Positions 4,093 through 7,093 of a stretch of 64,000 nt of DNA are shown piece by piece. Every line of letters starts with the position of its first letter. The stretch's first letter is position 1. Source of the DNA: Escherichia phage vB_EcoM_R5505; sequence record MK373786.1, one strand, 5' to 3'. A model generated the notes under the pieces. It worked only from the letters and a program-made list of their open reading frames with translations, was not told where the DNA came from and did not search any database. Position numbers and translations under genes: made by a program.

Positions 4093-4210
4093 TTTTTAAA
4101 AAGTTTTAGGGAATTCTAGGGTCAGGAGGGGCAATTAAAAGATAGGATAATATATTATAAAGGGTAGAAACTAAATGATGCCTAGAGAGGCCCAGAAAGG
4201 CCTAGATACC

Positions 4211-4238
4211 AAAAAGTCCCAACCTTTCGGTTGGGGCT
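4211..4238 (-). terminator. rho-independent terminator after the 157-aa gene
   Basis: Minus-strand hairpin GCCCCAACC-GAAA-GGTTGGGAC followed by UUUUU; sits just 3' of the stop at 4246. Confidence 0.6.
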
Positions 4239-4245
4239 AAGAATG

Positions 4246-4719
4246 TTATTTGATTTGTTTAGCAGACCAAATGCGGTCTTTAATAATTTTTTGGATGTCT
4301 TCAACATACTCAAGAGAGTGAGCATGTGGGTTATCTTTGAAACTATAAGCACGAGCTAACTTTTGACCTTCAGTTTTGATTACTAAAAGCTCTTTAAGGA
4401 TAGCTTCATATTTGGAGATAATTCCTTTAACAATATTTTTTTCTTGTGTAGCTTTAGGATCTGCTTTAGGAGCAGGTTTACCTGAAGCCTTTGCAAAAGC
4501 AGCGCCAGTAGCAACTAAACTTTTCCAGGCCATACTAACTGCATTCCCTGTAAATCCTTCGGCTTTCATATCACGAGCAAATTGGAATCGTGATTCATCG
4601 GAAGCATCTTTATAGGAATATTTACCCGCGGCAATGGCTGCTTTTGCGACAGCTTGAATTTCGGTGCTAGATGCTTCATTTAACACCGCTTCATTTAAAA
4701 ATTGAGCATATGATTTCAT
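4246..4719 (-). CDS. Ala/Lys-rich protein with internal-protein-like N-terminal capsid-targeting motif
   Basis: 157-aa ORF, ATG start; N-terminus MKSYAQFLNEAVLNEA resembles the T4 internal-protein targeting sequence MKTYQEFIAEA and carries two L-x-E sites (prohead protease motif). Confidence 0.7.
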   Translation of the reverse strand: MKSYAQFLNEAVLNEASSTEIQAVAKAAIAAGKYSYKDASDESRFQFARDMKAEGFTGNAVSMAWKSLVATGAAFAKASGKPAPKADPKATQEKNIVKGIISKYEAILKELLVIKTEGQKLARAYSFKDNPHAHSLEYVEDIQKIIKDRIWSAKQIK

Positions 4720-4765
4720 CTTATTTCCTGTTTTAATTCGTGGTTTTAATATACTTATTTATACC

Positions 4766-4792
4766 AAAAAGCCCCAACCTTTCGGTCGGGGC
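4766..4792 (-). terminator. rho-independent terminator at the 3' end of the tRNA/stable-RNA transcription unit
   Basis: Minus-strand hairpin GCCCCGACC-GAAA-GGTTGGGGC followed by UUUUU; near-identical to the terminator at 4211-4238. Confidence 0.6.
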
Positions 4793-4844
4793 TAAGCCTT
4801 GCGGCAACCTTGTCGGGGTTCCACCTGCTAAGGCAAGTGTTTGT

Positions 4845-5002
4845 ACGAAACGCCGGGATTCGAACCCGGTTATTAAGCAGTTGACGCTACTCAATATTTT
4901 TAAAAGGCCATATCTCGACCATATCCGAACGTTCCGTCAAAAACGCTACTCGGCTTACGGCAAAGATATTTCCTCGAATCGATAATTCGGTGCGCCGTTT
5001 CT
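4845..5002 (-). ncRNA. candidate small stable RNA with tRNA-like 3' module (possibly T4 species-RNA analogue)
   Basis: Minus strand has perfect T-arm CCGGG-TTCGAAT-CCCGG followed by 7-nt acceptor-like strand that pairs with GAAACG ~150 nt upstream; no ORF; several strong hairpins at 5004-5104. Confidence 0.3.
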
Positions 5003-5104
5003 GCTGTGATATAAGAGGGCATTAACAAAACATAAAGATTTATTAATGCCAGTCCTTAAACAGGGAACATCAGTCCGACGACTTACCGGTAGCGACCCGG
5101 TTTC

Positions 5105-5455
5105 TTAATATTCTTTTAAAGCATCAATTTGTTCACGGCGTAAACGCCATAAATCAATTGCTTCATAAGCAGATTCAGCATTTCGAATTAGCCGACATTT
5201 ATGTAAAGACTTATGATTTTGATATTGTGTAGATAACGGAATTTTATCTAAAAGGTCTTTACGTTCAAAATATTCGTAACCATCTAAACCAAATGAACGA
5301 TTTTTGAGAAATTGCCAATGACCATATTCGTTTTCGACATAAACATAATCTGCATGCTGATAAAGCAAATTAATTACACGTTCAGAAATAACAGTATCAT
5401 TATGATTAAAATAGAATGTTAAATCATGAACTACTAAATAAACATTACATTTCAT
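5105..5455 (-). CDS. hypothetical protein encoded between tRNA-Arg and the stable-RNA region
   Basis: 116-aa ORF, ATG start with SD (TGAGGAAAATG); no recognisable motif; not GIY-YIG or HNH. Confidence 0.6.
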   Translation of the reverse strand: MKCNVYLVVHDLTFYFNHNDTVISERVINLLYQHADYVYVENEYGHWQFLKNRSFGLDGYEYFERKDLLDKIPLSTQYQNHKSLHKCRLIRNAESAYEAIDLWRLRREQIDALKEY

Positions 5456-5473
5456 ATTTTCCTCACTTATAAT

Positions 5474-5549
5474 TGGTCGAGGCAGTAGGGATCGAACCTA
5501 CGACCTAGGACTTAGAAGGTCCTTGCTCTTCCTTCTGAGCTATGCCCCG
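5474..5549 (-). tRNA. tRNA-Arg (anticodon UCU)
   Basis: Manual cloverleaf: acceptor CGGGGCA/TGCCTCG, D-stem GCTC/GAGC, anticodon stem AGGAC/GTCCT with loop CTTCTAA, T-arm GTAGG-TTCGATC-CCTAC, encoded CCA. Confidence 0.85.
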
Positions 5550-5553
5550 TAAT

Positions 5554-5629
5554 TGGGGTGACCGATGGGAGTCGAACCCATGACTACGAGAATCACAATC
5601 TCGAGTTCTACCAACTGAACTACGGCCAC
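5554..5629 (-). tRNA. tRNA-His (anticodon GUG)
   Basis: Cloverleaf: acceptor GTGGCCG/CGGTCAC, D-stem GTTC/GAAC, anticodon stem CGAGA/TCTCG loop TTGTGAT, T-arm ATGGG-TTCGACT-CCCAT, discriminator C, CCA encoded; no encoded G-1. Confidence 0.75.
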
Positions 5630-5743
5630 ATTAATACCTACTCCAACAATCAAGATGTCTTCACACGAAATTAAGAGAAGAGTGATCAGTTCAACCCCTA
5701 TAATCGCGTCAAGTAGATATTAATGTGACAGTTGTCACAAATT

Positions 5744-5818
5744 TGGCGGACGTGATAGGATTCGAACCTATAACCAATCGCTTAACAGGCGATCGCTCTG
5801 CCATTGAGCTACACATCC
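5744..5818 (-). tRNA. tRNA-Asn (anticodon GUU)
   Basis: Cloverleaf: acceptor GGATGTG/CACGTCC, D-stem GCTC/GAGC, anticodon stem ATCGC/GCGAT loop CTGTTAA, T-arm ATAGG-TTCGAAT-CCTAT, CCA encoded. Confidence 0.75.
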
Positions 5819-5822
5819 AAAT

Positions 5823-5909
5823 TGGTGGGGAGTGGTGGAGTCGAACCACCCGAGTCGCAATGACAATGAATTTACAGTCCACACCGCTACCTCTACGGGA
5901 TAACTCCCC
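5823..5909 (-). tRNA. tRNA-Tyr (anticodon GUA), long variable arm
   Basis: Perfect acceptor GGGGAGT/ACTCCCC, T-arm GGTGG-TTCGACT-CCACC, anticodon loop CTGTAAA, ~15-nt variable arm; D-arm pairing imperfect. Confidence 0.6.
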
Positions 5910-5918
5910 AAATTAATT

Positions 5919-5993
5919 TGGTGGCCCTGGGTGGAATTGAACCACCATCTGGCGATTATGAGTCGCTTGCTTGAACCTTCCAGCTACAGGGCC
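5919..5993 (-). tRNA. tRNA with CAU anticodon (Ile2 lysidine type as in T4, or Met)
   Basis: Acceptor GGCCCTG/CAGGGCC, D-stem GCTG/AAGC, anticodon loop CTCATAA, T-arm GGTGG-TTCAATT-CCACC, CCA encoded. Confidence 0.7.
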
Positions 5994-5994
5994 T

Positions 5995-6070
5995 TGGTGC
6001 TGATTGACGGAATCGAACCGCCGACCTTCTCATTACAAGTGAGTTGCTCTACCTACTGAGCTAAATCAGC
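5995..6070 (-). tRNA. tRNA-Thr (anticodon UGU)
   Basis: Acceptor GCTGATT/AATCAGC, D-stem GCTC/GAGC, anticodon loop CTTGTAA, T-arm GGCGG-TTCGATT-CCGTC, CCA encoded. Confidence 0.85.
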
Positions 6071-6075
6071 AAAAC

Positions 6076-6165
6076 TGGCGGAGGCGATAGGATTTGAACC
6101 TATGAGTCGCCGGAGCGACTGCCGGTTTTCAAGACCGGTGCATTAAACCACTCTGCCACGCCTCC
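6076..6165 (-). tRNA. tRNA-Ser (anticodon UGA), long variable arm
   Basis: Acceptor GGAGGCG/CGCCTCC, anticodon stem ACCGG/CCGGT loop CTTGAAA, long variable stem-loop, T-arm ATAGG-TTCAAAT-CCTAT, CCA encoded. Confidence 0.85.
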
Positions 6166-6167
6166 AG

Positions 6168-6241
6168 TCTCCATACAAGGATTTGAACCTTGGACCTCCT
6201 GATCCCAAATCAGGCGCTCTACCAAACTGAGCTACACGGAG
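6168..6241 (-). tRNA. tRNA-Pro (anticodon UGG), CCA not encoded; 2-nt spacer to tRNA-Ser
   Basis: Acceptor CTCCGTG/TATGGAG, D-stem GCTC/GAGC, anticodon stem CCTGA/TCAGG loop TTTGGGA, T-arm CAAGG-TTCAAAT-CCTTG; Pro-Ser dimeric arrangement as in T4. Confidence 0.85.
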
Positions 6242-6251
6242 TAAATTAAAT

Positions 6252-6325
<74 letters not shown>

Positions 6326-6330
6326 AAATT

Positions 6331-6417
6331 TGGTGCGAGAAGTGGGACTCGAACCCACAAGGAAATCATTCCGCAGCATTTTAAGTGCTGTGCCTTTACC
6401 AATTTGACCATTCTCGC
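6331..6417 (-). tRNA. tRNA-Leu (anticodon UAA), long variable arm
   Basis: Acceptor GCGAGAA/TTCTCGC, anticodon stem CAGCA/TGCTG loop CTTAAAA, long variable arm, T-arm GTGGG-TTCGAGT-CCCAC, CCA encoded. Confidence 0.85.
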
Positions 6418-6418
6418 G

Positions 6419-6490
6419 CTGGGAATAAAGGACTCGAACCTTTGCATCTAGCAGTCAAAGTGCTATGCCTTACCAACTTGGCTAATTCCC
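6419..6490 (-). tRNA. tRNA-Gln (anticodon UUG), CCA not encoded; 1-nt spacer to tRNA-Leu
   Basis: Acceptor TGGGAAT/ATTCCCA, D-stem GCC/GGC, anticodon stem TAGCA/TGCTA loop CTTTGAC, T-arm AAAGG-TTCGAGT-CCTTT; Gln-Leu dimeric arrangement as in T4. Confidence 0.85.
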
Positions 6491-6577
6491 AATTATTAAC
6501 AAAGGCTCTCAAACAAGAACCCTTGATGATAGAGGGTATTAATCAGTGCGGTATGAGTTAATAATAACAAATAATTC

Positions 6578-7093
6578 TTAAAGCAAATTAAACATTTTAA
6601 CGGTCGGCAAAACAATTTCTTCTTCTATATAAGAGTATTTAACACTCTCAACTACACGCAAAAAATCATAATCATAATACTCAGAAGCATTACCTAAAAT
6701 ATTAATAAGTCCTTCAAGCACTTTATTACCATTCACAAAGAATAAGTCAAATACGCGTTCTTCGTCTTCTTCGGATTTATTACCAAGGTCAACTTCTATA
6801 TCAAAGACCTTTTTAATGAATTCTGGATAAAGTTGTTCTGAGAACAGTCCTTCAACCAAGTATTCATAAATAAAAAGCGATTGCTCGCTGAACAAGCCAT
6901 TACCACAATAACGTTCAGCTTTAGTACTAGAATGTCTACTTTTAAACTTCTTTAAAAGATATTGAAATTGTAAGATTTCATGCTCTTCTACGCCAAACAG
7001 TGTTTTAGTTTTATAGTTGTCACCATCATTTTCCCAGGTAGTGACATCAATTACGTAACCCTGTGGAATTGTAGTACCTAAACAAATATTCAT
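6578..7093 (-). CDS. hypothetical protein, last gene of a four-gene early operon in the tRNA-ipI variable region
   Basis: 171-aa ORF, ATG start, 4-nt overlap with upstream gene; acidic; no motif recognised. Confidence 0.65.
   Translation of the reverse strand: MNICLGTTIPQGYVIDVTTWENDGDNYKTKTLFGVEEHEILQFQYLLKKFKSRHSSTKAERYCGNGLFSEQSLFIYEYLVEGLFSEQLYPEFIKKVFDIEVDLGNKSEEDEERVFDLFFVNGNKVLEGLINILGNASEYYDYDFLRVVESVKYSYIEEEIVLPTVKMFNLL

Follow-up and report, generated by a model that had tools for sequence, protein, structure and literature searches.

The structured interval at positions 4795-5104 of the window (the whole 64,000-nucleotide stretch of Escherichia phage vB_EcoM_R5505, MK373786.1, analysed here) very probably carries the orthologues of two small stable RNAs of phage T4, rnaD (species 2) and rnaC (species 1), encoded on the minus strand, distally in the tRNA transcription unit; the proposed processing of these RNAs and the proposed role of a tRNA mimic belong to the same explanation. 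Species 1 and species 2 RNAs of T4 have been on record since the 1970s. The locus is an already-known element, an ordinary T4 locus in a T4-like genome, and the value of the analysis lies in a sharper structural model and a better annotation of it. An earlier note on this DNA had read the interval as one RNA with a tRNA-like 3′ module, either a homologue of the two T4 RNAs or a divergent analogue. By sequence comparison, positions 4844-5108 instead correspond to two adjacent RNAs together with a conserved trailer, and these are plain orthologues of the T4 RNAs, not divergent analogues.

Two T4 small RNA genes at the end of the tRNA operon

A BLAST search of the interval against 50,697 phage records found it in about 800 T4-like genomes. 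It aligns end to end with rnaD and rnaC of T4 (NC_000866), where the annotation of the homologous stretch places rnaD (119 nt; 71053-71171) and then rnaC (139 nt; 70908-71046) directly after tRNA-Arg. The suggestion of homology to both T4 RNAs is thereby borne out, and with 137 of 139 nucleotides of rnaC identical, the divergent option falls. The two rnaC substitutions, C at position 66 (U in T4) and G at position 105 (A in T4), are structure-neutral, one being at an unpaired base and one in a U.G/U-A pair. T4 rnaC lies on the same strand and in the same place, between rnaD and the trailer and terminator, and has the same predicted fold. For rnaD, T4 positions 4-119 align to 5105-4989. About 55 nt on its 5′ side and about 30 nt on its 3′ side match T4, and the hairpin-plus-rod fold is the same; the differences are concentrated in the apical hairpin, and the 3′ end reads CACCG here but CACCA in T4. 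The 6-nt spacer between the two RNAs is the same as in T4. Features of the locus are collected in Table 1.

Table 1. Coordinates of the rnaD-rnaC locus in the window; positions in brackets are those of the rnaC RNA
Feature	Position	Strand	Basis or remark
rnaD (T4 species 2 RNA) orthologue, ~120 nt	5108-4989	minus	T4 rnaD alignment; 5′ end placed via homology to T4 annotation
rnaD hairpin P1, ACCGG-GUCGCUA-CCGGU, 5-bp stem, 7-nt loop	5101-5085	minus	consensus fold
rnaD apical hairpin P5, GGCATTAA...TTAATGCC	5050-5018	minus	fold and comparison
rnaD closing stem P2, 3′ strand CGGCG-C-AC	4997-4990	minus	pairs with GUCGUCG 5082-5076
Spacer/leader GAAUUA between rnaD and rnaC, 6 nt	4988-4983	minus	alignment to T4
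rnaC (T4 species 1 RNA) orthologue, 139 nt	4982-4844	minus	137/139 nt identical to T4 rnaC
rnaC acceptor stem	(2-8 with 131-137)	minus	MFE and comparison
Acceptor 5′ strand CGAUUCG	4981-4975 (2-8)	minus	pairs with 4852-4846
Arm 1, long bulged hairpin	4974-4905 (9-78)	minus	MFE and comparison
Arm 1 apical loop UUGACG	4940-4935 (43-48)	minus	exact complement of arm 2 loop
A/U linker, arm 1 to arm 2, 8 nt		minus	MFE
Arm 2, 10-bp stem	4896-4871 (87-112)	minus	9/10 pairs covary
Arm 2 loop CGUCAA	4886-4881 (97-102)	minus	complement of arm 1 loop
T arm CCGGG-UUCGAAU-CCCGG, after one unpaired A	4869-4853 (114-130)	minus	MFE and comparison
Acceptor 3′ strand CGUUUCG, then U138 and ACA	4852-4846 (131-137)	minus	28-homologue comparison
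Conserved trailer, 50 nt	4843-4794	minus	between rnaC and terminator
Intrinsic terminator closing the tRNA/stable-RNA transcription unit	4793-4766	minus	10-bp stem

The surroundings of the two genes are those of T4 in outline: rnaC lies 3′ of a tRNA cluster and 5′ of a terminator, on the tRNA strand. ARAGORN finds 11 tRNA genes upstream on the minus strand (6491-5474; Gln, Leu, Gly, Pro, Ser, Thr, Met(CAU), Tyr, Asn, His and Arg), compared with 8 in T4, and unlike in T4 the cluster has no intergenic ORF big enough for the segB homing endonuclease (666 bp in T4). A gap of 114 nt (5630-5743) separates tRNA-His from tRNA-Asn. A 116-codon ORF on the minus strand (5455-5105) lies between tRNA-Arg and rnaD; it belongs to PHROG 3355, a family of unknown function, and resembles RB69 ORF150c. 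The flanking ORFs have no Pfam match and match solely PHROG families of unknown function. In T4, rnaD starts 1 nt past tRNA-Arg. In the window the 116-codon ORF intervenes, with a stop codon (5107-5105) that runs into the homologous 5′ end of rnaD, so that 3′ processing of tRNA-Arg, which makes this end in T4, cannot make it here.

The sequence features on which the earlier note had built are all present on the minus strand where it placed them. Its hairpin GGCAUUAA...UUAAUGCC is the apical hairpin of rnaD and its ACCGG...CCGGT hairpin is P1 of rnaD; the T arm with the 7-nt strand behind it belongs to rnaC, and the terminator (4793-4770 plus the U run) is confirmed. That the region is structured was upheld by folding: the z-score is -6.27 for the whole 351 nt and -2.47 for the 120-nt rnaD segment, while rnaC reaches an MFE of -50.2 kcal/mol at z = -4.55, with none of 200 shuffles as good.

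A cloverleaf-like fold for rnaC

The MFE structure of the 139-nt rnaC is a cloverleaf-like four-way junction. To it we compared 28 distinct homologues, drawn from GenBank phages, IMG/VR and metagenomes and covering at least eight Tevenvirinae genera (Tequatrovirus, Mosigvirus, Karamvirus, Kanagawavirus, Moonvirus, Gelderlandvirus, Marfavirus and the EcS1 type). In the alignable parts, 91.9% of cells are paired, as against 35-46% after a shift of the 3′ partners by 1-3 columns, and 17 of the 37 pairs have changed on both sides; none of 500 shuffles reached the observed values. This covariation supports a predicted cloverleaf-like fold made up of a 7-bp acceptor with a tandem U.U, a canonical T arm and two extra arms.

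Within the acceptor, pair 4-135 is A-U in 12 and G-C in 16 of the 28 homologues, and both U5.U134 and U6.U133 are mismatched in every one. The third pair of the T stem occurs as G-C, U-A and A-U, while the T loop keeps U-U-C-R-A. Arm 1 is invariant at its base (A9 G10 G11 with C76 C77 U78) and covaries in five of the six pairs of its apical stem; between the two, the homologues fall into two unrelated sequence classes, both folding as a bulged hairpin. G74 and G75 are unpaired and invariant, and we infer that they might be the analogue of G18 and G19 of the tRNA D loop. Behind the acceptor, homologues share the tail U-[A/C]-C-A-A, with U-CCA encoded in the Marfavirus clade, and the base preceding C2 is U in most of them.

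A covariance model of rnaC built from such homologues (R1) matches the window only once, at 4983-4839 with 160.5 bits, and finds no paralogue; this match is partly so by construction, because the seed alignment included the window's own sequence. The scores of other homologues are 128-166 bits, those of tRNAs no higher than 22 bits.

Two short repeats are present in the locus. GAGUAGCGU is an exact direct repeat within rnaC, at 4884-4892 in arm 2 and 4943-4951 in arm 1. The octamer AACCGGGU is common to the T arm of rnaC (4864-4871) and the 5′ hairpin of rnaD (5095-5102), both of which have a 5-bp stem and a 7-nt loop. The repeats and the like hairpins hint at an origin by duplication.

Complementary loops in the two extra arms

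The apical loops of arms 1 and 2 are exact Watson-Crick complements over 6 nt, which for two given hexaloops would happen by chance about once in 4,096. Both loops stay constant while the stems that carry them change completely among the 28 homologues. The one departure is compensated: five sequences of the Marfavirus clade have UUGGCG with CGCCAA, an A-U to G-C change, so all 28 sequences keep the 6-bp helix between the loops. Complementary hexaloops that change together indicate a predicted loop-loop (kissing) contact, which may either close one molecule or join two. The evidence is good but not conclusive, since apart from invariance it comes from a single evolutionary event.

Additional rnaC loci from Erwinia, Salmonella and Proteus phages have the same loops. 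Pattern scans of IMG/VR and metagenomes for more divergent rnaC lineages or further loop covariation returned known lineages only, and the remaining loop-pattern matches were discarded as chance or as 3′ ends of tmRNA type. On small viral contigs of IMG/VR (L011, L012, L026, L027, L035, L036 and L043) the loop pattern also met a recurrent 99-nt element that ends in GGGTTCGACTCCCGCCGGGTCCACCA; it has the look of a tmRNA 3′ end and is unrelated to rnaC. In the Enterobacter phage EnC15 (L005, 1127-1271), arms 1 and 2 are complementary over 15 nt and the MFE has a long-range helix instead; as a general feature of rnaC such a helix was rejected, being specific to the EnC15 lineage.

rnaD, the trailer and the promoters

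At its 5′ end rnaD has a hairpin; behind it comes a long rod, irregular and bulged, whose internal loops are conserved, and the modelled shape looks like that of a protein-binding RNA. Among the 34 pairs in the consensus fold of 12 homologues, seven show a compensatory change. The closing pair of P1 is A-U, G-C or G-U among homologues. At the site of P5, three unrelated sequence types (those of the window and T4, of L014 and of JS98) each form a hairpin. P2 is invariant, so covariation speaks neither for nor against it.

Beyond rnaC, the trailer contains a 7-bp hairpin, CACUUGC-CUUA-GCAGGUG, followed by CCCCGACAAGGUUG, which resembles the CCCCGACCGAAAGGUUG of the terminator; the former is a near-copy of the 5′ half and loop of the latter. 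The terminator itself has a 10-bp stem with seven G-C pairs and a GAAA loop (4793-4770), followed by a U run. The trailer is nearly invariant in Tequatro-, Mosig- and Dhakaviruses, and 95-98% identical in Dhakavirus phages without rnaC: in JS98 (L003, about 1300-1400) it directly follows rnaD and rnaC is absent. Possible roles for the trailer are those of a third small RNA or of an alternative-pairing element.

A T4 late-promoter box, TATAAATA, lies just past the terminator (4763-4756, minus strand) and would serve the next gene; a second copy of the box is at 7344-7337 on the minus strand, upstream of the tRNA cluster. In T4, RNAC and RNAD are discrete late transcripts on northern blots (PMC9697503), and the box at 7344-7337 could explain such late accumulation. 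In the window as a whole, 24 late-promoter boxes were observed against 9.6 expected.

Distribution and annotation

rnaC was found in 745 phage records, 490 of them at no less than 99% identity, which makes it far more conserved than the neighbouring 157-codon gene, with 511 records and only 2 at that level. rnaD occurs in 734 records, 144 at ≥99% identity, and varies mostly in its apical hairpin. The two RNAs occur separately. Dhakavirus JS98 has rnaD only, in the order tRNA-Arg, rnaD, trailer, terminator, and several genera have rnaC only. In Karamvirus, Moonvirus KM16, Gelderlandvirus and Erwinia phage COW86c, rnaC sits between tRNA-Trp and tRNA-Gly, with a 6-nt leader AAUUAU after tRNA-Trp and a 7-nt trailer UACAAAU. 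From this position in several genera it follows that rnaC behaves as a tRNA-like gene module. The separate occurrence of rnaC and rnaD and the high conservation of rnaC speak for functions of the free RNAs that are under selection, and both help in the design of knock-outs.

In T4 and several curated records the two genes are annotated as rnaC and rnaD, whereas many T4-like GenBank records have a "hypothetical protein" over them or leave them unannotated, and the record of KKP_3262 has a tRNA-Phe annotated within its rnaC homologue. A 96-nt tRNA-Phe(GAA), called by ARAGORN in only two Karamvirus-type rnaC homologues (L006, 1247-1342; L065, 223-318) and the same as that annotated for KKP_3262, was dismissed as an artefact. 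In Rfam, searched over 4200-6700 at E up to 10, no family matches rnaC or rnaD, the only hits on the interval being isrK, anti-hemB and Rev39 at chance level (11-17 bits). With no Rfam family and with records misannotated or unannotated, a covariance model of rnaC such as R1 would mend the annotation.

One RNA or two, spacer or regulator

The earlier note had closed the acceptor of its single RNA with GAAACG, about 150 nt upstream. The 6-nt match exists (5001-4996, 149 nt upstream) and is energetically competitive: the perfect GAAACG/CGUUUC pairing is used in the full-transcript MFE, and constrained folding of the rnaD-rnaC dimer before cleavage puts it at -88.7 kcal/mol and the internal acceptor at -84.7, a lead of 4 kcal/mol, so that folding alone does not refute it. 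As the mature structure, however, it is contradicted by comparison. GAAACG is part of rnaD's own closing stem, where it overlaps P2, and it is retained in JS98 in spite of the missing rnaC. Conversely, in rnaC homologues without an upstream rnaD, a compensatory A-U to G-C change with the local strand, CGAUUCG or CGGUUCG, preserves the acceptor. GAAACG was rejected as the rnaC acceptor on these grounds; judging from the homologues, the true 5′ acceptor strand is the local CGAUUCG, and the distant pairing is at most a transient conformation that could exist briefly in the precursor of phages with both RNAs. A single structured RNA of about 300 nt, a giant tRNA-like module closed by GAAACG, is highly improbable, the more so as both the annotation of T4 and the northern blot (PMC9697503) have two separate RNAs. 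That the interval encodes small proteins has a negligible chance of being right. ORFs of 42, 53 and 81 codons do overlap it and many records annotate hypothetical proteins, but the ORFs are short, start with TTG or GTG, lie on either strand and are not conserved among homologues, which agrees with the earlier impression that no ORF here is credible; moreover, the substitutions are compensatory for RNA helices, and the T4 and curated annotations have rnaC and rnaD in this place.

A different question is whether the RNAs act only in cis, as degenerate tRNA-derived spacers or structured 3′ ends that guide processing or shield the operon transcript from 3′ exonucleases and have no function once free. 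Their placement at the 3′ end of the operon in T4-type genomes, just before the terminator, would suit such a task, as would the conservation of trailer and terminator, and a tRNA-like shape would recruit RNase P. Yet rnaC is not a 3′ cap, since several genera have it within the tRNA array; from genus to genus its stems vary but its loops and unpaired bases do not, unexpected for a mere spacer; and in T4 a stable RNA accumulates (PMC9697503). We regard the cis-only account as improbable. The name "small regulatory RNAs", which some authors give to RNAC and RNAD (PMC9697503), would rather point to base-pairing with host or phage mRNAs, by one or both RNAs or by a fragment of trailer plus terminator. 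Such a fragment has the hairpin and U-tail layout typical of 3′-derived sRNAs, and the trailer is conserved independently of rnaC. On the other hand, there is no known target. In 5,426 complete E. coli genomes BLAST finds no counterpart of the interval, although short seed matches may escape it, and the hexaloops of rnaC are already accounted for, being complementary to each other and changing together. Regulation by base-pairing is, in our judgement, distinctly improbable.

Processing and possible function

The older T4 literature has the species RNAs excised by tRNA-processing enzymes, with RNase P acting at the 5′ end. From homology, this T4 biology and the anatomy of the locus, both RNAs would be released from the polycistronic tRNA transcript by the tRNA-maturation enzymes of the host. 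For rnaC, RNase P would cut at the 5′ end, and the 3′ end would be trimmed, possibly with CCA repair. Such an excision by RNase P and 3′ maturation enzymes fits because rnaC combines an acceptor/T minihelix, a U at position -1, flanking tRNAs and the conserved tail. By homology with T4, a stable RNA of about 140 nt should accumulate in this phage as well.

The function of both RNAs in T4 is given as unknown (PMC3014915). The fold of rnaC would present an acceptor/T-arm minihelix and, via the unpaired GG, maybe a tRNA-like elbow. Lacking an anticodon arm, rnaC cannot decode, and it is for this reason that a non-decoding tRNA mimic, occupying a tRNA-binding protein, appears to us its most likely role; its use as a decoy is speculation. 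In mechanistic terms rnaC would be a rigid mimic, and candidates for the protein it holds are tRNA-directed nucleases or toxins of the host and processing or modifying enzymes. That the partner is a host defence or processing enzyme is a tentative idea and rather unlikely. We think it unlikely that the full form of the proposal is right, in which rnaC is a tRNA decoy structurally locked by the loop contact and the tandem U.U acceptor, titrates or inhibits a host tRNA-directed enzyme (for example, a defence nuclease or toxin recognising the acceptor end or elbow), and is accompanied by the trailer as a possible independent third sRNA. If the decoy reading were true, an RNA orphaned for fifty years would have a function, and a class of RNA-based anti-defence would have spread through the tRNA arrays of Tevenvirinae.

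T4 with the tRNA region deleted still grows on laboratory strains, and any role of rnaC and rnaD should therefore be conditional. A convergent SNP in rnaD arose during adaptation of a T4-like phage to a semi-permissive E. coli strain (PMC12685909), which hints at a host-dependent role. For rnaC, the comparative fold provides a testable model, in which the kissing hexaloops, the tandem U.U, the unpaired GG and the NCA tail are open to mutation.

Comparison with tRNA and other tRNA-like RNAs

rnaC is not a tRNA. It goes undetected in the window by both ARAGORN, which reports neither a tRNA nor a tmRNA in 4795-5104, and the Rfam tRNA model (RF00005), which gives no match on the interval even at E up to 10. 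The tmRNA models of Rfam likewise have no match on the interval, and the YrlA model (RF02553) matches only weakly and only on true tRNAs at 5524-6305, with nothing on 4795-5108. What rnaC shares with tRNA is the acceptor/T half: a 7-bp acceptor, with two invariant U.U mismatches, continuous with a 5-bp T stem that carries a 7-nt loop (UUCRANY), followed by a discriminator-like base and NCA (CCA in Marfavirus). It also shares the location in tRNA gene arrays and tRNA-like spacers. In contrast to tRNA, it has neither an anticodon arm nor a D arm, is 139 nt long, has a tandem U.U in the acceptor, and bears two extra arms joined by complementary loops. The tRNA-like domain of tmRNA, YrlA and the tRNA-like structures of plant viruses follow the same principle, a non-decoding RNA offering an acceptor/T-arm module to tRNA-binding enzymes. 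rnaC differs from each of these mimics in its own way, having no tag reading frame, no Ro-binding stem and no acceptor pseudoknot.
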